Assembly (NCBI GenBank): GCA_963762865.1
Contig: CAVXNC010000018.1
Location: forward strand, 75,506 to 139,505
From: an uncultured Actinomycetota bacterium
GTDB taxonomy: Bacteria; Actinomycetota; Actinomycetes; JACCUZ01
Direction: 5' to 3'
Length of the DNA stretch: 64,000 nt
The notes under the pieces are model-generated. The model saw only the letters and a list, made by a program, of their open reading frames with translations, ran no database searches and was not told where the DNA came from. Each line of letters begins with the position of its first letter. Within the stretch, counting starts at the first letter, position 1. The position numbers and the translations under genes were made by a program. Shown piece after piece: positions 5,644 through 64,000 of the stretch.

Positions 5644-6402
5644 TCAGGCCGAGACCGCGCCCGACCTCAAGGCCGGACGCCGACCTCCTCGAGGCGGGTG
5701 AGCATCTCGGCCGGGTCGGCGTAGACGCGGTAGGCGCCGGCGCGTTCGAGCTCCTCGCGGCCGTAGCCACCGGAGAGCAGGCCGATGCCGAGGGCGCCGG
5801 CGCGCTGGGCGGCGAGCAGGTCCCACACACTGTCGCCGACCACGAAGGAGTTGCCCGGAGCGACGCCGAGCAGCTTGGCGGCGGCGAGGAACAGGTGCGG
5901 GTCCGGCTTGGCCCGCTCCACCAGGTCGCGGGTGACGACCGGCACGTCGGCAGGCAGGCCGAACATCTCGATCGCGGTGGCAGCCGTCCGGCGCGCGCCG
6001 CTGGTCGCGATCGCGAAGGGCACGCCTCGGTCGTGCAGGTGGTGCAGCAGCTCGCGGGCGCCGGGCAGCGGGCACGACCGAGTCCGCGCGGGCCAGGTAG
6101 GCGCGGGCGTGCCCGTCCTTGAGGCGCTGCAGGGCATCGGCGTCCAGCGGTACGCCCGTCTCGCGCTGCAGCGCGTCGAGGAAGAGCCCGCCGCTCATGC
6201 CGATGCGCCGGTGGATGCGCCACACCGACAGGGGGATCCCCAGCTCGGCCAACGCCTCCTGCCACGCCGTCACGTGCTGGTAGACCGAGTCGACCAGCGT
6301 GCCGTCCAGGTCGAAGAGCAGCGCCGGCTGCGGCACCTCCAGATCATCGAGGGCCCCTGGGCCGCTCCCGTCAGCCACCGTCATCGCCGCCTCCTCAGCC
6401 AC
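5644..6402 (-). CDS. HAD-family hydrolase (beta-phosphoglucomutase-like) with an apparent frameshift near 6061-6085.
   Basis: The N-terminal HAD motif I (LLFDLDGTLVDS) is in the frame of ORF 6402..5644. The C-terminal motifs (VPFAIATSG...KPDPHLF...VVGDSVWDLLAA) are in the frame of ORF 6137..5667. Confidence 0.6.
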   Translation of the reverse strand: MAEEAAMTVADGSGPGALDDLEVPQPALLFDLDGTLVDSVYQHVTAWQEALAELGIPLSVWRIHRRIGMSGGLFLDALQRETGVPLDADALQRLKDGHARAYLARADSVVPAARRPRAAAPPARPRRALRDRDQRRAPDGCHRDRDVRPACRRAGRHPRPGGAGQAGPAPVPRRRQAARRRSGQLLRGRRQCVGPARRPARRRPRHRPALRWLRPRGARTRRRLPRLRRPGRDAHPPRGGRRPALRSGAVSA

Positions 6403-7201
6403 CGGCCGCGAGCTCGCGGCCGCGGTCGCGGGCCGCCTCGAGCGCGGCGAGCATCGCGGCCCGCACGCCGTGGTTCTCCATCTCGCGGATCGCGTTGATC
6501 GTCGTTCCCGCGGGCGACGTCACCTGCTCGCGCAGCGTCGACGGCCGCTCCCCCGAGTCGCGCAGCATGACCGCCGAGCCGATCGCGGTCTGCACGATCA
6601 GGTCGTGCGCCACCTGCCGGGGCAGGCCGAGCAGGATCCCGGCGTCGGTCATCGCCTCGACCAGGTAGAAGAAGTACGCCGGACCGGAGCCCGAGAGGGC
6701 AGTCACCGCGTCCTGCTGCGACTCGGGGACCCGGATGGTCCGGCCGACGGGGGCGAAGATGGACTCGGTGCGTGCGAGGTGCGCCTCCTGCGCGTGGCTC
6801 CCGGCCGAGATGGCACTCATCGCCTCGTCGACGAGCACCGGGGTGTTGGACATGACGCGCACGACCGGTGTGCCGTCGGCGAGCCGCTCCTCGATGAACG
6901 CCGTGGTCGTGCCGGCTGCTGCCGTGACGACCAGCCGGTCGGCAGGGACGTGCGGACCGAGCTCGTCGAGAAGGGCTCCCATGTCCTGCGGCTTCACGGT
7001 CAGGATCAGCGTCTCGGCCCAGCGCGCGGCCTCCGCGTTGCCGAGCACCTCGACGGCGTACCGCTCGCGCAGGCTCGCGGCCCGCTCCTCGCGGCGCGCG
7101 GTGACGACGACGTCGGCGGGGGCCGTCCCGCTGCGCAACATCCCCGACAGCAGCGCCTCGCCCATCTTGCCGGTGCCGAGCACCGCGACCCGCTGCGCCA
7201 T
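6395..7201 (-). CDS. proC: Pyrroline-5-carboxylate reductase.
   Basis: 268 aa with a Rossmann N-terminus (VAVLGTGKMGEAL) and the ProC signature (SPAGTT). Confidence 0.9.
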   Translation of the reverse strand: MAQRVAVLGTGKMGEALLSGMLRSGTAPADVVVTARREERAASLRERYAVEVLGNAEAARWAETLILTVKPQDMGALLDELGPHVPADRLVVTAAAGTTTAFIEERLADGTPVVRVMSNTPVLVDEAMSAISAGSHAQEAHLARTESIFAPVGRTIRVPESQQDAVTALSGSGPAYFFYLVEAMTDAGILLGLPRQVAHDLIVQTAIGSAVMLRDSGERPSTLREQVTSPAGTTINAIREMENHGVRAAMLAALEAARDRGRELAAGG

Positions 7202-7208
7202 GTCGGAC

Positions 7209-8138
7209 CTACCCCTTGGTGGCGACGGCTCTGAGGAAGAAGGACAGGTTGGCCGGCTTCTCGGCCATCCGGCGCACGAGGTAGCCGTACCACTCGTCGC
7301 CGTAGGGGACGTAGACGCGCATCCTCTGCCCCTGGCGCGCCAGGCGCTCCTGCTCGTGCGGCCGGATGCCGAAGAGCATCTGGAACTCGAAGCTGTCCTT
7401 CGCGCGACCGGTGCGCCGAGCGAGCTCCTCGGTGATGGCCACGAGCCGCGGGTCGTGCGTGGCGACCATCGGGTAGCCAGGACCCTCCATCAGCACGCGC
7501 AGTGCGCGGACGTAGGCGCGGTCGACGTCCGACCGGCCCTGGAACGCGACCGACTCTGGCTCCCTGTAGGCGCCCTTGCACAGCCGGACCCGCGAGCCCT
7601 CGTAAGCCAGGTCGCGGCAGTCGGCCTCGGTCCGTCGCAGGTAGGCCTGCAGGACAGCGCCGGTCTCCGGGAAGTCGACGCGCAGGTCGCGCAGGATGCC
7701 CAGCGTCGAGTCGGTGGTGGTGTGGTCCTCCATGTCCAGCGTCACCGTGGTGCCGGCGGCGCGGGCGGCCTCGCAGATCGCGAAGGCGTTGTCGAGCGCG
7801 ACCTTCTCGCCGTCACCCGGTAGGGCCTGGCCGACAGCCGACAGCTTGACCGACACCTCGGACGAGCCGGTGAGCCCGCCGTCGGCGAGCAGCTTGAGCA
7901 GCCGGAGGTAGGCCTCGCGGGTCGCGTCGGCCTGCTCGCGGAGCAGCGTGTCCTCGCCGAGGTGGTCGAGCGAGGCCAGCAGGTTGCGACCGGCCAGTGC
8001 CCGGACCGCGGTGACCGCCTCCTCGGCAGAGGTGCCCGCCACGAACCGGGCGACGACCGAACGGGACACGGGGGCGGTCTCCACCAGGTGGCGGATCCGG
8101 CCGCTCCGCGACATCGACAGCAGGACTCGCCGCAGCAA
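7209..8138 (-). CDS. Proline dehydrogenase (monofunctional PutA-like).
   Basis: 309 aa with a proline dehydrogenase TIM-barrel sequence (ATHD..FEFQMLFGIR). Adjacent to proC. Confidence 0.85.
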   Translation of the reverse strand: MLRRVLLSMSRSGRIRHLVETAPVSRSVVARFVAGTSAEEAVTAVRALAGRNLLASLDHLGEDTLLREQADATREAYLRLLKLLADGGLTGSSEVSVKLSAVGQALPGDGEKVALDNAFAICEAARAAGTTVTLDMEDHTTTDSTLGILRDLRVDFPETGAVLQAYLRRTEADCRDLAYEGSRVRLCKGAYREPESVAFQGRSDVDRAYVRALRVLMEGPGYPMVATHDPRLVAITEELARRTGRAKDSFEFQMLFGIRPHEQERLARQGQRMRVYVPYGDEWYGYLVRRMAEKPANLSFFLRAVATKG

Positions 8139-16949: not shown

Positions 16950-18035
16950 GTGCCAGGCACCGAACGGTCCGACGACCCGCTGCGCACGACGCTCGCAGCG
17001 GTCGCCCCCGGCACCACGCTGCGTGACGGCCTGGAGCGGATCCTGCGCGGCGGCACGGGGGCGCTCATCGTCCTCGGCTACGACAAGGTCGTCGAGGAGC
17101 TGTGCACCGGCGGCTTCGTGCTCGACGTCGAGTTCAGCGCCACCCGGCTGCGCGAGCTGGCCAAGATGGACGGCGCGATCGTCGTCGACCGCGACTGCAC
17201 GCGCATCGTGCGCGCGGCCGTCCAGATGGTCCCCGACCCGGCGATCCCCACCGACGAGTCCGGCACCCGGCACCGCACCGCCGACCGGGTCAACAAGCAG
17301 ACCGACCTGCCGGTCATCTCCGTCAGCCAGTCGATGAGCATCATCGCGATCTACGTCGACGGCCAGCGCTACGTCCTCGAGGCCTCCACGCAGATCCTGT
17401 CCCGCGCCAACCAGGCGCTGGCCACCCTGGAGCGCTACAAGCTCCGCCTCGACGAGGTCTCCGGCACGCTGTCCGCCCTCGAGATCGAGGACCTCGTCAC
17501 CGTCCGCGACGTCGCCGCGGTCGCCCAGCGCCTCGAGATGGTGCGGCGCATCGCCGGCGAGATCGAGTCGTACGTCGTCGAGCTCGGCACCGACGGCCGC
17601 CTGCTCACGCTGCAGCTCGACGAGCTGATCGCCGGGGTCGAGCCCGACCGCGAGCTGATCGCCCGCGACTACCTGCCGGCGGCCACCGGACGGAAGTCGC
17701 GCACCGTCGCCGACGTGATGGCCGACCTGGACCTGCTCGACTCCCTCGAGCTGCTCGACCACGCGGCTGTCGCGCGGGCCCTGGGCTACGCGGGCGGGGA
17801 GGGCCTCGACGCGGCCGTCAGCCCGCGCGGCTACCGGCTGCTCGCCCGGGTGCCGCGACTGCCCGGCACCGTGGTCGACCGGCTGGTCGAGCACTTCGGC
17901 AGCCTGCAGAAGCTGCTCGCCGCCAGCATCGACGACCTGCAGACGGTTGACGGCGTCGGCGAGTCGCGCGCCCGGTCGATCCGCGAGGGCCTCTCGCGAC
18001 TGGCCGAGTCGTCGATCCTCGAGCGCTACGTCTGA
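16950..18035 (+). CDS. disA: DNA integrity scanning protein DisA (diadenylate cyclase).
   Basis: A DAC domain (DGAIVVD...RHRTA) plus a C-terminal HhH. In the conserved radA-disA arrangement. Confidence 0.9.
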
Positions 18036-18059: not shown

Positions 18060-18534
18060 CTACCGGCCGGCGAGCCAACCGCGAAGCACCGTGACGACCA
18101 GGTCGTGGTCCTCGAGCTGGGGCAGCCCAGAGACTGCGACCACTCCGACCGGGCCGACACCACGGACCAGCAGCGGGAACGCACCGCCGTGCGCGGCGTA
18201 GTCCGCGCTCGGCACGGCGTACTTGTCCTCGAGGGTGGTCCCCTGGTCCCGGCAGAGCTGCCCGACGTGCAGCGAGCTGCGCCCGAAGCGGCGCACCACG
18301 TTGCCCTTGCGCCGGATCCACTCGTCGTTGTCCGCGACCGTGCCGGGCAGGGCCGCGTGGAAGAGCTGCCGCCCGGCCAGCTCGATGTCGATGACCACGC
18401 CGGCACCGCGGCGGCGCGCCTCCTCGACCAGCGCGACCCCGAAGGCCCACGCCACGTCCTCGTCGAAGCCGTCGTGCTGCAGCTCGGCCTCCTGGGCCAC
18501 CAGCTCGGCCACCGTCGGCCAGTCCTCGCTCATG
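18060..18534 (-). CDS. DUF336 / GlcG-like heme-binding family protein.
   Basis: A ~158-aa ORF starting MSEDWPTVAEL. Overlaps the upstream methyltransferase stop by ~4 nt. Confidence 0.65.
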
Positions 18535-19372
18535 ACAGGCAGCGTGCCACGGCGCTCCCCACCACGACGGTCGCGTCGTGCTCCTCCGACGTCACCACCG
18601 TGGCGGTCAGACCCGCTGACCGCAGCACGCCGGCCGCCGCCTCGGCCTGGCGGGCGCTCGCCTCGGTGAGCAGGTGGCCACCCGGTGCCAGCCACCGGGA
18701 CGCTTCCGCGGAAACGCGGCGCAGCACGTCGAGGCCGTCCGGCCCGCCGTCCAGGGTGGCGACCGGCTCGTGCAGCCGGGCCTCGGCGGGCATCAGGTCG
18801 AGCTCCGCAGTCGGCACGTAGGGCACGTTGGCCAGCAGCACGTCGACCACGCCTCTCAGCCCTGCGGGCAACGGCTCGAAGAGATCTCCCTCGAGCACCT
18901 GACCGCCCAGCGGCTGCACGTTGCGCCGGGCGCACGCCACCGCCACCGGGTCGACGTCGGCGGCGTGCAGCTCGGCGCTGCCCAGCATCGTCGCCAGCGC
19001 GACTCCAAGCGCACCGCTGCCGCAGCACAGGTCGACGACCACGGTCCGACGCCGAACCGCGTCGGCGCCGGCACCGGCGGGCCCGCCTGCTGGCGCGGAC
19101 CGGACGAGCTCGGCAGCGTGCTCGACCAGGAACTCGGTGCGGGGCCGCGGCCGGAAGACGCCCGGGTCGACCTGGATGCGCAGCCCGCAGAACTCGGCCC
19201 ACCCCAGCACGTGCTCGAGCGGCTCCCCGCCAACCCGGCGGTCGACCATCGTGGTCAGCTCGGCCGGCGAGCCCGCCGTCTCCTCCAGAAGTGCCGCCTC
19301 GTCCTCGGCGAACACGCAGCCGGCGGCGCGCAGCCGCGCGACGAGAGCCGAATCGGGCACGCGGCCGAGCAT
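18530..19372 (-). CDS. HemK/PrmC-like protein N5-glutamine methyltransferase family protein.
   Basis: SAM-binding motifs (VVDLCCGSGALG) and an NVPYVP (NPPY-like) motif typical of N5-glutamine methyltransferases. Confidence 0.7.
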   Translation of the reverse strand: MLGRVPDSALVARLRAAGCVFAEDEAALLEETAGSPAELTTMVDRRVGGEPLEHVLGWAEFCGLRIQVDPGVFRPRPRTEFLVEHAAELVRSAPAGGPAGAGADAVRRRTVVVDLCCGSGALGVALATMLGSAELHAADVDPVAVACARRNVQPLGGQVLEGDLFEPLPAGLRGVVDVLLANVPYVPTAELDLMPAEARLHEPVATLDGGPDGLDVLRRVSAEASRWLAPGGHLLTEASARQAEAAAGVLRSAGLTATVVTSEEHDATVVVGSAVARCLS

Positions 19373-19441
19373 CGCAGGTGAGCCGGGTCGCCACCGGTCA
19401 GGACTGCAGATCGACCTCAGTGCGGGCGCGCACGTCAGCCG

Positions 19442-19852
19442 TCAGGCGGGCACCAGACCGGCGAGGGCCGTCAAGGACACGACGAAGACGGGGGTCTTGG
19501 CGGCGTCCCGGCGCACCTCGAGGACGTACGCCGGCAGGCCCAGGCCGCGCTGGCCCTCGGCCGGCACCAGGTCGTTGTCCGCCAGGACGGCGACCACCTT
19601 GTCCACGGCCAGTCCCAGGACACCCTCGGCGACCTGCAGGACGAGGACGTCGCCCGGCACCGTCGGGTCGCCGCTGCCGCTGCGCAGGTCGACGACCGGC
19701 ACCGGCTGACCGCGCAGCACGAGGAGGCCGGTCACCGGAGCACGAGCCCCGGCCAGCGGTTCGATGCCGTTGGCCCGCACGACCTCGCGGACCTCGTCGA
19801 GCCGACCGGCCAGGACGCGTCCGTCCATGGCGAAGCTCACGTAGCCGTTCAC
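19442..19852 (-). CDS. cheW: Chemotaxis coupling protein CheW-like.
   Basis: A ~137-aa CheW-domain sequence. The GTG start overlaps the cheR stop (GTGA). Confidence 0.7.
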   Translation of the reverse strand: MNGYVSFAMDGRVLAGRLDEVREVVRANGIEPLAGARAPVTGLLVLRGQPVPVVDLRSGSGDPTVPGDVLVLQVAEGVLGLAVDKVVAVLADNDLVPAEGQRGLGLPAYVLEVRRDAAKTPVFVVSLTALAGLVPA

Positions 19853-21345
19853 CGGACACCTCCCGGGGAGGACGAGACCGTCTCGCCGTCGACCCGCTGC
19901 TCGGACTGCTCTGCCAGCAGCAGGCACAGCCCTGCGAGCTCGGCCACGTCGCGGCCGTCCAGGACGCCGACGACGGCGCTGCCGGTCTGCTTGGCCAGGG
20001 CGGCCGCGGCCGCCCGGTAGGACACGGCCGCGGCACCGTGCTGGCCGAGTCGCGCCAGGGCCCCGGCGAGCAGGAAGTGGGCATGCCCGGCGGTGGGGTC
20101 CAGGTAGACGGCCTTGCGCAGCGGGTCGACGGCACCGGCGTCCTGGCCGAGCGTCGACCGGGCCTGACCGAGCACCACGTAGGCGGCCGGCAGCAGCGGA
20201 TCGGTCTCGAGGGCCGCCTGCGCGTGGCTGGCCGCCGAGGCGTAGTCACCGTCCCGGAGCGCCACCAGCGCGGCGTCCAGCTCGGGGCCGCCGCGCGAGC
20301 CGGCGAGCGGCCGGGAGCGGGGCGGGGGCGCCGAGGACGCAGCGATGTCCCGCGGAGCAGTCGACGCGGAGTCGGCCACGCCTGCCCCGGCGGGGGGTCC
20401 CAGCCGGCCACCGGACAGCGCCAGGGCAGGCGCTGCGGGACGGCCGCGCCGCACCGCCCGGGAGCCCGGCACGTGCACTCGTCGCGTCTGGTGTGAGCGG
20501 CGGTAGACGAACGCCTCGCCGACCGGGACCAGGGTGAAGGCGTCGCTGACCTGCCACAGCGTCTCCGAGTGGCCCAGGAGCAGGTAGCCACCCTCGGCAA
20601 GCACGTCGTGGAAGCGGCCCATGAGCAGCCTGGTGGTGTCCCGGCCGAAGTAGATCGTGACGTTGCGGCAGACGACCAGGTCGACCTCTCCCGGCGCGAA
20701 GGGCACGGGGTCGGTCACCAAGTTGTGCATCCGCAGCTCGACCAGCTGGCGCACCTCGTCCCGAACCGCCAGCGCGCCGCCGGGCACCGGCTCGAGCCAG
20801 CGGTCACGCACCATCGTCGGCAGCGAGTCGACGGTCCGGCCGGCGTAGGTCGCCCGCTCCGCCGCACGCAGCGCGTCGGCGGACACGTCGGTGCCGAGGA
20901 TCCGCGCCGGCGCCCGGCCGGCGTTGCCACCGGCACCCCCGGGCGAGAGGTCCAGCAGCAGCATGGCAAGGGTGTAGGGCTCCTCGCCGGTCGAGCAGCC
21001 CGCGCTCCAGATCGTCAGCGGTCGCTCCCGGCCGGCGGCCCGGCGCAGCAGCTCCGGCAGCACCCGCCGGCGGAGCACCTCCATCTGCGGCGCGTTGCGG
21101 AAGAAGTGCGTCTCCTGCACGGTCACGGCGTCGAGCAGCCGCTGCCGCTCGACATCGCCATCGGCCCGCTCGAGGCCGGCCAGATAGGCCTCGACGCTCG
21201 ACGCGCCACTGGACCGGAGCCGCTCGGCCACGACGGCGGACAGGCCCCCGCGGCGCCCGGCGTCGAACTCCAGGCCGGCGGCGCCGCGCAGGTAGTCACG
21301 GACAGCGGCGAACTCGGCATCGCCCAGCACGCCCGGGCCACTCAT
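19849..21345 (-). CDS. cheR: Chemotaxis protein methyltransferase CheR fused to C-terminal TPR repeats.
   Basis: A CheR SAM-methyltransferase domain (RIWSAGCSTGEEPYTLAML...VCRNVTIYF) followed by a TPR-like Ala/Leu-rich C-terminus. The start ATG overlaps the cheB stop by 4 nt. Confidence 0.8.
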   Translation of the reverse strand: MSGPGVLGDAEFAAVRDYLRGAAGLEFDAGRRGGLSAVVAERLRSSGASSVEAYLAGLERADGDVERQRLLDAVTVQETHFFRNAPQMEVLRRRVLPELLRRAAGRERPLTIWSAGCSTGEEPYTLAMLLLDLSPGGAGGNAGRAPARILGTDVSADALRAAERATYAGRTVDSLPTMVRDRWLEPVPGGALAVRDEVRQLVELRMHNLVTDPVPFAPGEVDLVVCRNVTIYFGRDTTRLLMGRFHDVLAEGGYLLLGHSETLWQVSDAFTLVPVGEAFVYRRSHQTRRVHVPGSRAVRRGRPAAPALALSGGRLGPPAGAGVADSASTAPRDIAASSAPPPRSRPLAGSRGGPELDAALVALRDGDYASAASHAQAALETDPLLPAAYVVLGQARSTLGQDAGAVDPLRKAVYLDPTAGHAHFLLAGALARLGQHGAAAVSYRAAAAALAKQTGSAVVGVLDGRDVAELAGLCLLLAEQSEQRVDGETVSSSPGGVR

Positions 21346-22550
21346 GTCGCCACCCGCTCGGGCTCGACGGACTCGGCCAGCACGACGCCGATCTGCGACA
21401 GCGGCAGCTCGACCTCCACCGCGCCAAGTGCCTGGGCGGCAGCCGGCATGCCCCACACGACGCTGGTCGGCTCGTCCTGGGCGATGGTGAGGGCGCCGGA
21501 CGCGCGCAGCTGGCGCAGCCCCTCGGCGCCGTCGCGGCCCATCCCGGTCAGCAGGACGCCGACGGTCTGCGGTCCGCACACGGCGGCAGCGCTTGCGAAG
21601 GCCGCGTCGACGCCGGGCACGTGGAACTGCCCCACCGGCGGTGTTCGCAGCTCGACCCGCAGCCCGGGACGCAGCAACGTGTTCACCCCGGCGGGGGCGA
21701 CGTGCACGACGCCGGGACGGAGCCGACGGCCGTGCTGGGCCATCTCGACCGGAAGGGCGGACAGCCCGTTGAGCCAGTCGGCCAGGCCCTCGACGAAGCC
21801 GTCGGCCATGTGCTGCACGACGAGCACCGGCACCGACAGGTCCGACGGCAGGTCGGCGAGGATCGTCGCGAGCGCCGGCGGGCCACCGGTCGACGCGCCG
21901 ACCACGATCAGCCGGCGCGGCCCGGTGAAGACGTCGGCGGCCCGGGTCGCCGGCCGGTCCGCGACGCGGTGGTGCGCGGCTGCCGCGGCGGGATCGGCGG
22001 ACGCGGCGGGATCGGCGGACGCGGGGGGCAAAGGCGAGTGGCTGGCCACGGGCAGGACGGGCAGCGCGCCGGCGGCGTCCTCCGGCCCGGCCGAGAGGCC
22101 GCGGGCGCGCAGCCGGCTGCGTGGGTGGGTGATCACCCGCACCCGGCTGGCCACCTGGAGGTGCCGGCGCAGCGCAGTGGCGTACTGCGGGGAGCTGGGC
22201 AGGGCGTCGAGGGCACCGACCACGTCGACGGCACCGGCCGCCAGCGCCGCCTGGGAGTGCTCGACCAGGCTGCCGCACACCACGACCGGTGTCGGCCGGG
22301 TGCCCATGATCCGCTCGATCGCCTCGATGCCGCCGTCGGCGGGGTGCAGGTCGACCAGGACCGCGCCGGGCTGGTGCTCGACGACGGCCGCCTCCGCGTC
22401 CTCGGCGGTCCAGACCTCGGCCGCGATCGAGAACCCGGGACCGGCGAGCAGGCCGCGCAGGGCACGCGTGCGCGCCCGGCTGTCCCCCACGACCACGACG
22501 ACCAGGGTGGTGCCGCTGGGTGCCGCCGGCCGGGCTCCGGTCGTCGACAT
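21342..22550 (-). CDS. cheB: Protein-glutamate methylesterase/deamidase CheB (receiver + methylesterase domains).
   Basis: An N-terminal REC-like domain and a C-terminal CheB methylesterase fold (RLIVVGASTGGP...VVQHM...LLTGMGRDG). Confidence 0.8.
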   Translation of the reverse strand: MSTTGARPAAPSGTTLVVVVVGDSRARTRALRGLLAGPGFSIAAEVWTAEDAEAAVVEHQPGAVLVDLHPADGGIEAIERIMGTRPTPVVVCGSLVEHSQAALAAGAVDVVGALDALPSSPQYATALRRHLQVASRVRVITHPRSRLRARGLSAGPEDAAGALPVLPVASHSPLPPASADPAASADPAAAAAHHRVADRPATRAADVFTGPRRLIVVGASTGGPPALATILADLPSDLSVPVLVVQHMADGFVEGLADWLNGLSALPVEMAQHGRRLRPGVVHVAPAGVNTLLRPGLRVELRTPPVGQFHVPGVDAAFASAAAVCGPQTVGVLLTGMGRDGAEGLRQLRASGALTIAQDEPTSVVWGMPAAAQALGAVEVELPLSQIGVVLAESVEPERVAT

Positions 22551-22663
22551 CAGGCGGGCCACCTCTTCCGGGTCTCGGGGCGGGAAACGCCTCGTGCGGA
22601 AGGTCGTCAGATCGGGCCACGCACTTGAGCCGCGCGGCCCCACGGGTGAGGATCGCCACCGAC

Positions 22664-23566
22664 ATGACCGCCGCCGCGCAGAGCCCCCCGACGCCGCCCG
22701 CTGGCGAGCTGCACGGGCCGGTCCTGGGCTGGTACGCCGCCCACGCCCGCACCCTGCCCTGGCGGGTCCCCGGGACCAGCCCGTGGGCGGTCCTGGTCAG
22801 CGAGGTGATGCTCCAGCAGACCCCCGTCGGGCGGGTCGAGCCGGTCTACCGGGAGTGGCTGGCGCGCTGGCCCACCCCGGCCGCGCTCGCCGCCGACCCG
22901 GCCGGCGAGGCCGTGCGGGCCTGGGGCCGCCTCGGCTACCCCCGGCGTGCCCTGCGGCTGCACGCCGCCGCGACCGAGATCGTGGCCCGCCACGACGGCG
23001 AGCTGCCGACGACGTACGGCGAACTGCTCGCTCTCCCGGGCGTCGGCGGCTACACCGCGGCCGCGGTGATGTCCTTCGCCTACGGCAGCCGGCACGCGGT
23101 GCTCGACACCAACGTGCGCCGGGTGCTCGCCAGGGCAGTCAGCGGCCGGGCCGAGCCGGCACCCTCGCTGACGGCTGCCGAGCAGCGGCTGGCCGAGTCG
23201 CTGCTGCCGGCCGAGCCGTCCGTCGCCGCCCGCTGGGCGGTCGCCGTGATGGAGCTCGGCGCCCTGGTGTGCACCGCGCGGGCGCCGGCGTGCGACCGCT
23301 GCCCGCTCGCCGCGCGGTGCGCGTGGCTGGCGGCCGGACGCCCGGCCCACGACGGGCCGCCACGGCGACGGCAGGCCTTCGAGGGCACCGACCGCCAGGC
23401 GCGCGGCCGGCTGATGGCCGTGCTGCGCGAGGCACCCGGGCCGGTCCCACCGACCCGCCTCGACGCAGCCTGGCCGGAGCCGGTGCAACGGGACCGCGCG
23501 CTGGCCGGTCTGCTCGCCGACGGGCTGGTCGACGAGGTGGCCGGCGGCTACGCGCTGCCCGGCTGA
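22664..23566 (+). CDS. mutY: A/G-specific adenine DNA glycosylase MutY.
   Basis: HhH-GPD (LPGVGGYTAAAV) and 4Fe-4S cluster cysteines (C..C..C..C), as in the MutY/Nth family. Confidence 0.85.
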   Translation: MTAAAQSPPTPPAGELHGPVLGWYAAHARTLPWRVPGTSPWAVLVSEVMLQQTPVGRVEPVYREWLARWPTPAALAADPAGEAVRAWGRLGYPRRALRLHAAATEIVARHDGELPTTYGELLALPGVGGYTAAAVMSFAYGSRHAVLDTNVRRVLARAVSGRAEPAPSLTAAEQRLAESLLPAEPSVAARWAVAVMELGALVCTARAPACDRCPLAARCAWLAAGRPAHDGPPRRRQAFEGTDRQARGRLMAVLREAPGPVPPTRLDAAWPEPVQRDRALAGLLADGLVDEVAGGYALPG

Positions 23567-37040: not shown

Positions 37041-38795
37041 ATGGACGACGACCCCGAGCCGACAGGCACCACGACCACCCAGGCACCCACCACCGACGCC
37101 GGGGCCACCACCTCGCGCTTCAGTGAGGTTCCGACCGACGCACTGGCGGACCGTCTCTCCCGCTGGGCGTCGAGCCTGGCCGCGGCGGAGTGCGAGTTCC
37201 TCGACCTGCTGGCTGAGTTCGACGCGCGCCAGGCGTGGGGCGAGTCCGGGATGCGATCCACGGCTCACTGGCTGTCGTGGCGGCTCGGGCTGCGCCTGGG
37301 TGTCGCGCGGGAGAAGGTGCGAGTGGCCCGGGCCCTGCAGCGGCTGCCACTGGTCCACGACGAGTTCGCGGCCGGCACGTTGTCCTACTGCAAGGTGCGC
37401 GCGCTGAGCAGGGTCGCCACCGACGCGACCGAGGCGGAGCTGGTCCACATCGCCCGCGGCGCGACCGGGGCGCAGCTCGAGACCGTCGTGCGGCAGTGGC
37501 GGCGGACCCTGATCGGCGACACAACGGCGTCCTCGCACATCCGTCGCGGTCTCCGGAAGCGGATCGAGGACGACGGGTCCTACGTCGTCACCGTCCGGCT
37601 GTCCCCGGTCGAGGGACCGGTCTTCGCGAAGGCAATCGCCCTCGCCCGCACCTCCGTCCTGGACGAGGCCGGCCAGGTCGTCGAGACCCCGGAGGAGGCC
37701 GCGCTGGCTGACGCGCTCGCCGAGGACTCTCCCTGGGAGCGCTCCGAAGCCGACGCCTTCGTGCTGATCGCCTCGTCGTTCCTGGCCCACGGACCATCCG
37801 GCGAGGCCGGCGACCGGCACCTCGTCCTGGTCCACGCCGACATCGACACGCTCGCCGAGGCGTGTCGCAGCGCAGCGGACGCTGGTGGCCCGGCGGACGC
37901 GGGTGGAGCCGCTGGCGAGCCGTCCAGCAACGGTTCCGCGGAAACGTCGTCGCCAGCGGAAGACTCCCCCGATCGAGACACCGACGAGCGATCCCGAAGC
38001 GTCTCCGCGGAAACGTCCGGGCTCACGCAGCCCGGCTTTGCCGCCCACGAGCCGATCGCTGCGAGCGGGTCCGTGCACCAGGAGTCCTACGCCCGCCGGC
38101 CGGCTACCTGCGTCACCGAGGACGGTCAGCCGATCTCGGCCAGCACCGTGCTGCGCATGCTGTGCGACTCACCGGCCCAGTTGCTCGTCACCGCGCGCGA
38201 CGGCCGACCACTCGACCTCGGCCGGACCAGCCGCAACGCCGACCGTCGCCAGCGCCGCGCCATACGTGTTCGCGACGGCGGCTTCTGCCGGTTCCCCGGC
38301 TGCTCCCAGCGCCACCGCCTCATCCCGCACCACACCCGGTGGTGGAGCCGCGGCGGGCGGACCGATCTCGACCTCCTGGTCAGCGTGTGTCCCACGCACC
38401 ACCTGGCGGTCCACGAGCTGGGCTACGACGTCACCGCTCTCGGCGGTGGCCGCTTCGCCTGGTACCGGCCGGACGGCCAGGAGATCAGCGCGGCACCGAC
38501 GCTCGGCGACGAGGTGGCGACGTCGCCCGGCTCGGTCGTTGGGCCGGCGGCTGCGGCGGGCGACTCGTCGCGGTCCGGCGGGCAGCGGATCGTGCCGATG
38601 TGGGGCGGCGAGCGGATCGACCTCGACCACCTGCTCGGCGGGATGGCCGCCAACCTGCTCAACGACGCCGGCCACCGTCTCACCGACATCCCCTACTCCG
38701 CACTCGACCAGACCCTGCGGACGGCAGCCGGATGGCCGGCCGCACAGCCCGGCCACCGACCATTCGACGGTCCGCGGGACGCGAACGCCGCCTGA
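37041..38795 (+). CDS. DUF222 domain-containing HNH endonuclease (REP13E12-like).
   Basis: DUF222 N-terminal region and a C-terminal HNH motif (CRFPGCSQRHRLIPHHTRWW...CPTHH). An intact paralog-type relative of the pseudogene at 4256-5600. Confidence 0.8.
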   Translation: MDDDPEPTGTTTTQAPTTDAGATTSRFSEVPTDALADRLSRWASSLAAAECEFLDLLAEFDARQAWGESGMRSTAHWLSWRLGLRLGVAREKVRVARALQRLPLVHDEFAAGTLSYCKVRALSRVATDATEAELVHIARGATGAQLETVVRQWRRTLIGDTTASSHIRRGLRKRIEDDGSYVVTVRLSPVEGPVFAKAIALARTSVLDEAGQVVETPEEAALADALAEDSPWERSEADAFVLIASSFLAHGPSGEAGDRHLVLVHADIDTLAEACRSAADAGGPADAGGAAGEPSSNGSAETSSPAEDSPDRDTDERSRSVSAETSGLTQPGFAAHEPIAASGSVHQESYARRPATCVTEDGQPISASTVLRMLCDSPAQLLVTARDGRPLDLGRTSRNADRRQRRAIRVRDGGFCRFPGCSQRHRLIPHHTRWWSRGGRTDLDLLVSVCPTHHLAVHELGYDVTALGGGRFAWYRPDGQEISAAPTLGDEVATSPGSVVGPAAAAGDSSRSGGQRIVPMWGGERIDLDHLLGGMAANLLNDAGHRLTDIPYSALDQTLRTAAGWPAAQPGHRPFDGPRDANAA

Positions 38796-40446: not shown

Positions 40447-40733
40447 GCTCAGTGCGCCTTGTCGTAGGCCTCGATGATGGTCGCCGGGATGCGGCCGCGC
40501 TCGTTGACCTTGTGGCCGTTGGACCGGGCCCACTCGCGGATCTCGGCGGTGCGGTTGTCGCCGCCACGACGCGCCCGGCCTCGACTGCTGCCACGCCCGC
40601 CCGAGGAGCGGCCACCGACCCGACGGGCCTGCCCGACGTACTGCCCGAAGGCGTCCCGCATCTTCCCGGCGTTCTTGGCGCTCAGGTCGATCTCGTAGGA
40701 GACGCCGTCGAGGGAGAAGGACACGGTCTCGTC
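40447..40733. repeat. 287-bp direct repeat, copy A (lsr2 3' segment).
   Basis: Near-identical (2 mismatches) to 41321-41607. Confidence 0.85.
40449..40733 (-). pseudogene. Truncated duplicate of the lsr2 3' portion (C-terminal ~95 codons).
   Basis: A 287-bp direct repeat of lsr2 codons 18-112 (two mismatches versus 41321-41607). The N-terminal dimerisation strand is replaced by unrelated Arg-rich sequence. Confidence 0.55.
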
Positions 40734-41320: not shown

Positions 41321-41607
41321 GCTCAGTGCGCCTTGTCGTAGGCCTCGATGATGGTCGCCGGGATGCGGCCGCGCTCGTTGACCTTGTGGCCGTTGGACCG
41401 GGCCCACTCGCGGATCTCGGCGGTGCGGTTGTCGCCGCCACGACGCGCCCGGCCACGACTGCTGCCACGCCCGCCCGAGGAGCGGCCACCGACCCGGCGG
41501 GCCTGCCCGACGTACTGCCCGAAGGCGTCCCGCATCTTCCCGGCGTTCTTGGCGCTCAGGTCGATCTCGTAGGAGACGCCGTCGAGGGAGAAGGACACGG
41601 TCTCGTC
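41321..41607. repeat. 287-bp direct repeat, copy B (within intact lsr2).
   Basis: Near-identical to 40447-40733, offset 874 bp. Confidence 0.85.
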
Positions 41608-41661
41608 CGCCGTTCCCCCGTCGATGTCGTCGACCAGCAGGACGGTGACTTTCTGCGCCAT
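41323..41661 (-). CDS. lsr2: Nucleoid-associated protein Lsr2.
   Basis: 112 aa ([16 protein letters not shown]...[16 protein letters not shown]). Canonical Lsr2 with an RGR AT-hook. AT-rich upstream region. Confidence 0.9.
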
Positions 41662-63603: not shown

Positions 63604-64000
63604 CTAGGACCGGGAAGCGCGGTGCGCCAGCACGACCGCCTGCAGCCGGTCACGGACGCCCAGCTTCATCAGGATCCGCGCGACGTGCGTCTTCACGGTG
63701 CCCTCGCCGATCACCAGCTCCGTCGCGATCTCGCCGTTGGACATTCCCTGCGCCATCAGCGCGAGCACCTCCCGCTCGCGCCCGGTCAGTGCCCGCAGCC
63801 TGCCCTCGGCCGGCGGCAGTCGCCGGGCTGACAGGTCAGCGGCGACCCGGCGGGCCGCCGCGCCGGAGAGCACGGCGTCCCCGACCGCGGCGGCGCGGAC
63901 TGCGGCGACCAACCGCTCGGCGGGCACGTCCTTGAGCAGGTAGCCGCTGGCGCCGTCCGCCAGCGCGGCTCGCACGTGCTCGTCGGTGTCGAACGTGGTG
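63604..64000 (-). CDS. LuxR/NarL-family response regulator; the N-terminus lies beyond the window.
   Basis: A C-terminal LuxR HTH (LTGREREVLALMAQGMSNGEIATELVIGEGTVKTHVARI) preceded by the end of a receiver domain. The ORF is open at the 64000 edge. Confidence 0.75.
   Translation of the reverse strand, partial: TTFDTDEHVRAALADGASGYLLKDVPAERLVAAVRAAAVGDAVLSGAAARRVAADLSARRLPPAEGRLRALTGREREVLALMAQGMSNGEIATELVIGEGTVKTHVARILMKLGVRDRLQAVVLAHRASRS

Follow-up and report, generated by a model that had tools for sequence, protein, structure and literature searches.

A conserved cheB-cheR(TPR)-cheW cassette without a local kinase or receptor gene in the mutY-disA interval of uncultured soil actinobacteria

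What can a CheB methylesterase, a CheR methyltransferase and a CheW coupling protein do in a genome region that encodes neither a CheA kinase nor a methyl-accepting chemotaxis protein (MCP)? This question is raised by the window analysed here, the whole 64-kb stretch of contig CAVXNC010000018.1 from an uncultured actinobacterium, in which five co-directional minus-strand genes lie between disA and mutY. The initial annotation, made from the sequence alone, had read these genes as one stand-alone methylation circuit of CheB, a CheR fused to tetratricopeptide repeats (CheR-TPR), CheW, a PrmC/HemK-like methyltransferase and a DUF336 protein. The position and direction of the five genes were borne out, and hidden Markov models from Pfam and NCBIfam backed every domain call. 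Comparison of the mutY-disA interval in ~25 related loci did not support the grouping of the five genes as one module: cheB-cheR-cheW alone was constant, indicating that the real unit is a three-gene cassette, cheB-cheR(TPR)-cheW, of which we found no earlier description in the searchable literature. With a probability of roughly 55%, we read this trio as a module for receptor methylation, demethylation and coupling that derives from a Wsp-like system, has lost its control by phosphorylation and acts on a receptor encoded elsewhere. The locus is laid out as follows.

22664-23566, plus strand: mutY, divergent from cheB; conserved left-hand anchor of the slot
22551-22663, no strand: divergent intergenic region of 113 nt between cheB and mutY; presumed promoter region of the trio
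21342-22550, minus strand: cheB, 402 aa; domain calls backed by Pfam and NCBIfam
19849-21345, minus strand: cheR-TPR, 498 aa; domain calls backed by Pfam and NCBIfam
19442-19852, minus strand: cheW, 136 aa; domain call backed by Pfam
19373-19441, minus strand: 69-nt gap that separates cheW from the methyltransferase gene and delimits the conserved cassette
18530-19372, minus strand: methyltransferase gene (TIGR03704, NVPY motif), 280 aa; neighbour, outside the cassette
18060-18533, minus strand: DUF336/HbpS-like (UPF0303-type) gene, 157 aa; neighbour, outside the cassette
16950-18035, plus strand: disA, convergent with the cassette; conserved right-hand anchor of the slot

To place the locus among its relatives, we scanned a collection with a single genome for each species, using CheR-TPR as the query; this yielded 14 trio-bearing loci from actinobacterial metagenome-assembled genomes (MAGs) and one locus from an Iamiaceae MAG (together L001-L015). 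The order mutY, cheB-cheR-cheW, disA-radA was found in 14/14 of the trio-bearing actinobacterial loci and in further contigs. Across L001-L015, mutY was 63-80% identical and disA 72-94% identical, with Pfam matches to HhH-GPD and to DAC and DisA-linker, respectively, in the relatives, and disA always adjoined a variable spot after cheW. The reading frames of the trio were intact across the relatives at 45-95% identity. Split matches occurred in five MAGs (L003, L005, L007, L013 and L015), and because neighbouring housekeeping genes were split there too, they look like long-read assembly errors. The median pairwise ratios of nonsynonymous to synonymous substitution (dN/dS) were 0.36 for cheB, 0.49 for cheR and 0.44 for cheW against 0.35, 0.25 and 0.20 for mutY, radA and disA by the same method, values that indicate purifying selection and are meaningful only relative to one another because dS is saturated at a third-position G+C content of ~0.93. 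All carriers of the trio are uncultured soil organisms (the record names cite forest soil, farmland soil and a Danish MAG series), and some of the MAGs are labelled Sporichthyaceae. The trio is best read as vertically inherited in the mutY-disA slot of an uncultured soil lineage of the class Actinomycetes. Approximately 10 kb from the cassette of one relative lies an SsgA-family gene (L110:20002-20396), which suggests an actinomycete lineage that sporulates or has a complex morphology.

We then asked whether the two genes downstream of cheW belong to the cassette. The methyltransferase is PrmC-related, as had been annotated, but belongs to the family TIGR03704 (PrmC_rel_meth, 378.8 bits; cut-off 248.8) and not to PrmC/HemK proper: its score against the PrmC model TIGR03534 was 177.5, under the cut-off of 199.1, and it carries NVPY in place of the NPPY motif. 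The DUF336 protein matched PF03928 (97.4 bits) and NF002696 (191.1 bits; cut-off 146), which places it by score among predicted UPF0303/HbpS-like proteins. Both proteins are thus clear members of their families by curated score. The methyltransferase gene was absent from 15/15 loci of the genome scan, and the DUF336 gene was present there in L012 and L015 only, and outside the scan in L028, L066 and L113. In relatives, the spot between cheW and disA holds nothing (seven loci), a gene for a small transmembrane protein, a GNAT gene, a gene for a polytopic membrane protein without a Pfam match, a STAS-GNAT-DUF336 set, DUF336 alone, DUF222 with the methyltransferase and DUF336, or a membrane protein with the methyltransferase and DUF336; in the window and L066 it holds the methyltransferase and DUF336 genes. 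An unrelated gene separates cheW from this pair in L113 and L028, and the position right after cheW is filled by other genes in L113, L028, L003 and L026.

The same picture emerged from 80 metagenome loci (L029-L108) whose methyltransferases are 57-80% identical to that of the window. None of them has che genes beside the methyltransferase, and 79/80 have neither a che nor a DUF336 neighbour; the sole locus with DUF336 and disA nearby, L066, is orthologous to the window. TIGR03704 methyltransferases are widespread (540 relatives were confirmed in one scan), and no recurrent partner was found among the 80 loci, the top neighbour family, a GntR-like regulator, occurring in 7/80. As there is no conserved gene neighbour, the substrate of this methyltransferase is not guessable from context. 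Because the methyltransferase and DUF336 genes vary within the slot and the relatives of the methyltransferase have no che neighbours, the trio is the unit and the five-gene circuit is not. The two genes are best read as unrelated passengers in a variable insertion spot, and the proposed circuit of two methyltransferases plus a heme protein, of which the last two genes are missing from most orthologous loci, is, judged by this comparison, an artefact of adjacency.

Some other occupants of the spot deserve mention. Directly downstream of cheW, the closest relatives of the window encode a polytopic membrane protein (L003:11775-12941, L026:7785-9308 and L113:8179-9276; 42-53% identical mutually). 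We considered this protein as a hidden receptor and rejected it, as it has neither a Pfam match nor any likeness to an MCP and the window does not encode it. A DUF222 (HNH-endonuclease-associated) gene lies between cheW and the methyltransferase gene in L028 (1223-2917), and another is located in the window at 37041-38795; this fits a contribution of DUF222 elements to the variability of the spot.

Having delimited the cassette, we examined whether its proteins look functional. In CheB, the methylesterase domain matched PF01339 (CheB_methylest) with 190 bits, its predicted fold superimposed on 1CHD and 3SFT with template modelling (TM) scores of 0.86-0.90 in Foldseek, and the catalytic Ser, His and Asp were present in 120/120 orthologues. 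The receiver domain scored 27.9 bits against PF00072 (Response_reg), under the cut-off of 30.2. We therefore aligned the receiver of the window protein with 11 orthologues, with the Salmonella CheB structure 1A2O and with 120 database orthologues; the censuses given here for the window clade and below for its sister clade each comprise the best 120 matches listed. E. coli CheB and CheW served as guide sequences in the alignments, and we verified the decisive residue calls with sequences from the PDB. Three of the five receiver signature residues were missing in 120/120 CheB proteins of the window clade: the first acidic position is G or A, the β4 Ser/Thr position is Gly and the β5 Lys is absent, each in all 120, and in the window protein the alignment to 1A2O showed that the β5 K-P is deleted. 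The phospho-acceptor Asp was retained in 120/120 and the second acidic residue in 113/120. By its signature residues, the receiver is thus predicted to be incompetent for canonical Asp phosphorylation.

The N-terminal domain of CheB is nevertheless a maintained pseudo-receiver and not debris, because the receiver fold is confidently predicted and is conserved as well as the esterase domain. The AlphaFold2 model has predicted local distance difference test (pLDDT) values of 92-98 across residues 20-100; Foldseek returned 6YMZ and 1A2O for the whole protein and 3T8Y for the receiver domain (TM 0.81); and the mean identity to the window CheB was 84% in the receiver versus 81% in the esterase domain. 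Directly before the lost β4 Ser/Thr lies Cys92 (window 22275-22277, minus strand), which is present in 118/120 orthologues, and the position is occupied by Tyr in the sister clade with its canonical receiver; Cys92 might be a redox-sensitive site.

CheR-TPR consists of an S-adenosylmethionine-dependent protein-glutamate O-methyltransferase domain (residues ~6-285), a low-complexity linker and a C-terminal TPR domain (~356-455). The Pfam matches were PF01739 for the CheR domain (170.6 bits), a weak match to CheR_N (17.8 bits), and TPR_16, TPR_8, TPR_17 and TPR_19 at residues 356-455; consensus-TPR structures matched residues 364-446, and phmmer matched the CheR part to the structures 5XLX (P. 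aeruginosa CheR1, 130 bits), 5FTW and 1AF7. The CheR motifs and the TPR segment were conserved in the orthologues and in the CheR of L014, the Wsp-like locus described below. CheW is a single-domain coupling protein (PF01584, 52.7 bits) whose AlphaFold2 model has a mean pLDDT of 87.4 and finds the E. coli and T. maritima CheW as its top Foldseek matches (TM ~0.7), and neither the alignment nor the model shows a large deletion. Its subfamily is small and divergent, with only 91 cluster representatives at E<=1e-10 among 1.84 billion. Using the list of residues with which model CheW proteins contact their receptors (PMC13098124), we found the corresponding positions, defined in T. maritima and E. 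coli CheW, to be invariant or conservatively kept. Because these contact residues are conserved, we argue that an MCP-like partner still exists.

No gene for such a partner lies nearby. In agreement with the initial annotation, tblastn and phmmer searches with real CheA, MCP and histidine kinase sequences (the kinase queries being the L014 CheA and a histidine kinase) and Pfam scans of every open reading frame of at least 300 aa detected no CheA, histidine kinase or MCP in the 64-kb window; the sole phmmer match to an MCP reached 16.5 bits and was in an antisense frame. Likewise, no CheA or MCP gene was found within ±10 kb of the ~25 related loci read. In bacteria, adaptation genes are commonly encoded apart from cheA and mcp genes, and for this reason the absence of partners from 64 kb is weak evidence for their absence from the genome. 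What these loci do present is a CheR-TPR and a CheB esterase that look active and a CheW that looks receptor-competent by residues and fold, kept together under selection without a local kinase, receptor or histidine phosphotransfer (Hpt) gene. The window end truncates a minus-strand gene for a NarL/LuxR-type response regulator, of which only the C-terminal portion with the GerE domain is included (63604-63999); this regulator has no tie to the che genes, and any partner kinase of it would lie outside the window.

Where does such a trio come from? In Pseudomonas, the Wsp system contains a CheB (WspF), a CheR-TPR (WspC) and a CheW (WspD). The closest complete relative of the trio that we found is the Iamiaceae MAG locus of the genome scan, L014, which encodes a full cluster of MCP (HAMP and MCPsignal domains), CheW, CheA-REC, CheB, CheR-TPR, CheW and REC-GGDEF. 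The window shares with it the order CheB, CheR-TPR, CheW and the fusion of CheR to a C-terminal TPR domain. The proteins of the window and its orthologues are 37-42% (CheB) and 31-43% (CheR) identical to those of L014, and a small neighbour-joining tree of the sampled sequences placed the L014 CheB as the closest outgroup. Unlike Wsp, the window has no MCP, second CheW, CheA-REC or REC-GGDEF gene in the locus or the 64 kb, and its CheB receiver is without three of the five signature residues; the CheA-REC and REC-GGDEF output genes of L014 were found in none of the window-clade or sister-clade loci read. CheR-TPR fusions occur predominantly in clusters of the Wsp-like type, which serve alternative cellular functions (ACF) (PMC3447774), and this, together with the Wsp-like character of the closest complete relative, agrees with the initial annotation that the locus is not a flagellar chemotaxis operon. 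Descent of the trio from a Wsp-like system is the best available reading, short of proof.

A search with the CheB of L011, the most basal CheB of the slot, uncovered a large clade of MAGs labelled Mycobacteriales or Frankiales that takes the sister position to the window clade in the CheB tree. Its CheB receiver is canonical, with the acidic pair in 118-120/120, the phospho-acceptor Asp and the Ser each in 120/120 and the Lys in 118/120. In 4/4 contexts (L115-L118), the slot reads mutY, a DUF4232-type membrane protein gene (X1), an Hpt gene, cheB, cheR-TPR, cheW and disA, so that the mutY-disA slot, the three genes and their order are shared with the window clade. The Hpt genes lie directly upstream of cheB.

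L115:9735-10004: Hpt gene
L116:3940-4254: Hpt gene
L117:9643-9972: Hpt gene
L118:9591-10004: Hpt gene

These Hpt proteins are free-standing (89-137 aa), have an invariant His in an RDAH motif, and score 24.7-30.2 bits in Pfam (4/4 above the cut-off of 24.6); in 3/4 loci the end of the Hpt gene and the start of cheB share 4 nt. An hhalign comparison with the P1 domain of the L014 CheA gave a probability of 94% (E = 1e-7) and aligned the phosphorylatable His residues. By this resemblance, the sister-clade Hpt appears to be a CheA of which only the phosphotransfer domain is left. In contrast, the window clade has neither the P1-like Hpt nor the canonical receiver nor the DUF4232-type protein: the Hpt and X1 proteins had no tblastn match in the window, the 113-nt region between cheB and mutY is too short for both genes, and the mutY-cheB spacers compared in the window clade measure ~110-190 nt and contain no Hpt gene. 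Three loci are candidate intermediates: L011 lacks the Hpt gene and has Thr at the position of the Lys, L008 also lacks the Hpt gene and has a degenerate receiver, and in L010 cheB is broken. X1 was considered as a mini-receptor and rejected, being a membrane-anchored DUF4232-type extracytoplasmic protein that adjoins mutY; it may be an ancestral occupant of the slot. In one of the four sister-clade loci, L117, a PAS-GAF-HisKA-HATPase kinase gene (5984-7279) followed by a single-domain receiver gene (7514-7870) adjoins the cassette between clpC and mutY; the pair could supply the phosphoryl groups of a four-step relay, or its presence may be coincidental.

The simplest history consistent with these gene contents would be a stepwise reduction. 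A full Wsp-like cluster (MCP-CheW-CheA-REC-CheB-CheR-TPR-CheW-REC-GGDEF) of the ACF type would have been reduced to a stand-alone P1-like Hpt with a CheB that has a canonical receiver, CheR-TPR and CheW, as in the sister clade; in the window clade, the Hpt would then have been lost and the CheB receiver have become a conserved pseudo-receiver. The degenerate receiver and the loss of the Hpt gene fit a CheB that may no longer take phosphoryl input. The cassette is, in this account, a kinase-less, phospho-dead descendant of an ACF/Wsp-type system and not a new kind of system. In the mechanism we propose, CheW would dock on the hairpin tip of an MCP-type or methyl-accepting coiled-coil (MAC)-type receptor encoded elsewhere and, perhaps together with the TPR domain, would tether both enzymes to it. 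CheR-TPR would methylate Glu residues of the receptor and CheB would demethylate or deamidate them, the activity of CheB being ungated by Asp phosphorylation and either constitutive or set by whatever the pseudo-receiver binds.

Several points weigh against this reading. With no receptor or kinase gene in the window or within ±10 kb of the related loci, we purely infer the partner, and the genomes of the lineage may have no MCP at all, the searches having covered the window and those flanks. Because the CheB receiver keeps its phospho-acceptor Asp and its second acidic residue, it may be phosphorylated in a non-canonical manner or bind a ligand. L014 was found via shared peptide patterns and not exhaustively, the CheB tree has few taxa and no support values, and the selection estimates hold in relative terms only.

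The strongest alternative, which we nevertheless consider unlikely, retains the core of the initial annotation pared down to three genes. It supposes that the genomes have neither CheA nor MCP and that the trio by itself reversibly methylates Glu residues of some non-MCP target, forming a self-contained switch that senses its input through either the pseudo-receiver or the TPR domain. The absence of kinase and receptor genes from all regions read, the loss of the Hpt gene together with the degenerate phospho-pocket, the strong conservation of the pseudo-receiver including Cys92 beside the former active site, the small and divergent CheW family and the origin of all matches from uncultured organisms would fit this alternative. 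Against it, we know of no documented substrate of CheR and CheB besides MCP-type coiled coils, under CheA feedback, and a separate location of adaptation genes is commonplace; moreover, CheR keeps its N-terminal receptor-helix domain, albeit as a weak Pfam match, and CheW has conserved the positions through which its counterparts in model systems touch the hairpin tip of the MCP (PMC13098124). We regard as doubtful the more specific version in which CheA and MCP are missing genome-wide and the trio has been re-used on a non-chemoreceptor target with the Cys of the pseudo-receiver as a redox or ligand sensor; if it were true, the constant disA/radA adjacency would invite a look at a link to cyclic di-AMP or DNA-damage signalling. 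A comparably doubtful alternative keeps a receptor encoded elsewhere and makes it a MAC-type or hybrid-kinase receptor instead of a classical MCP with CheA, the kinase feeding CheB of the sister clade via the Hpt (histidine kinase to receiver to Hpt to CheB receiver). A free-standing Hpt beside a canonical receiver-bearing CheB is what a multistep phosphorelay needs, and the kinase and receiver genes of L117 lie just past mutY; this pair occurs in 1/4 sister-clade loci only, and the window clade has no Hpt gene. The Hpt, moreover, resembles a CheA P1 domain and would equally fit a split CheA as in Rhodobacter sphaeroides, where the His-domain protein CheA3 is phosphorylated by CheA4 (PMC6829392). 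That system is a precedent for a P1/Hpt encoded apart from its kinase core, relevant to the sister-clade Hpt; unlike it, the cassette has no kinase core nearby. The MAC1 and MAC2 systems, experimentally uncharacterised, combine CheB and CheR with methyl-accepting coiled-coil kinases and are accompanied by a rare class of CheW (bioRxiv 10.1101/2022.05.07.491037). The trio is like them in having CheB and CheR without separate CheA or MCP genes nearby and unlike them in that no MAC-type kinase adjoins the cassette in any locus read, although MAC2 is defined by such an association, and in its sequence affinity to a Wsp-like cluster; no histidine kinase gene lies beside the window cassette, and the one near L117 is an ordinary PAS-GAF kinase.

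A passive explanation, in which the trio is an inactive remnant of a decayed Wsp-like cluster, strikes us as improbable. The three arrangements, first the full cluster, then the trio with an Hpt gene and last the trio whose receiver is degenerate, resemble progressive loss, and the broken cheB of L010 and the intermediate receiver decay in L008 and L011 point the same way. The split matches in five other MAGs, by contrast, look like assembly errors, and a relic would not be expected to have intact frames at the observed divergence, dN/dS values comparable to that of mutY, a CheB catalytic triad present throughout, conserved CheR and TPR motifs and a pseudo-receiver conserved as well as the esterase domain. 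Hardly credible, finally, is a methylation circuit in which CheB, CheR-TPR, CheW, the PrmC-like methyltransferase and the DUF336 protein all act on one substrate. The five genes are co-directional and their junctions match the initial annotation closely: overlaps of 4 nt (ATGA, GTGA and ATGA) join all neighbours except across the gap after cheW, and the DUF336 gene is translationally coupled to the methyltransferase gene through such an overlap. The gap is just 69 nt (70 nt in the annotation), no terminator-like site was detected in it by a scan not tuned to actinomycetes, and its predicted RNA folding was no better than that of shuffled sequences (z = +1.2). Set against this are the absence of the methyltransferase gene from 15/15 and of the DUF336 gene from 13/15 genome-scan loci, the intervening genes in L113 and L028, and the lack of che and DUF336 neighbours for 79/80 relatives of the methyltransferase.

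The reading of the trio as a Wsp-derived module acting on a distant receptor finds a partial parallel in the Frz system of Myxococcus xanthus, in which the CheB, FrzG, has no receiver domain and the CheW, FrzB, does not interact with CheA; these are precedents for a CheB without phospho-regulation and a CheW with a non-CheA role. Frz also has a CheR-TPR fusion, FrzF (PMC3447774). It differs in that the Frz cluster has its own receptor, FrzCD, and its own CheA, FrzE, and in that the window CheB keeps a folded pseudo-receiver and the window CheW has no large deletion. The window methyltransferase, for its part, differs from PrmC/HemK proper in score and motif as described, and neither it nor the DUF336 protein shows a conserved che linkage.

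Further features of the window touch the cassette less directly. The sequence is G+C-rich (~72-77%) with a strong third-position bias, and a promoter scan, again not tuned to actinomycetes, found no sigma-70-like site in the 113-nt region between cheB and mutY. The only PADLOC matches were to mad2 and reflect the generic methyltransferase fold (the PrmC-like methyltransferase scored 61 bits and CheR 19.6 bits), so a role in anti-phage defence was rejected. A 287-nt direct repeat (40447-40733 and 41321-41607), whose copies are 99% identical and spaced by 874 nt, doubles the 3' portion of lsr2 (41323-41661, minus strand), creating a second, truncated Lsr2-like open reading frame (40449-40724); either a recent duplication or an error of assembly could explain it.

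For annotation, the consequence is that the PrmC-like methyltransferase and DUF336 genes beside the trio should be left out of the system. For the biology of the family, the locus and its sister clade preserve an apparent stepwise dismantling of a Wsp-like pathway, in which the kinase was reduced to a free-standing P1/Hpt protein that then disappeared, while CheR, CheB and CheW remain under selection, and with them the phospho-dead yet conserved receiver of CheB. If a receptor is encoded elsewhere, the cassette would show receptor adaptation operating in nature without a link to kinase feedback; if no receptor exists, it would be a first case of CheR/CheB chemistry re-used on a different substrate.

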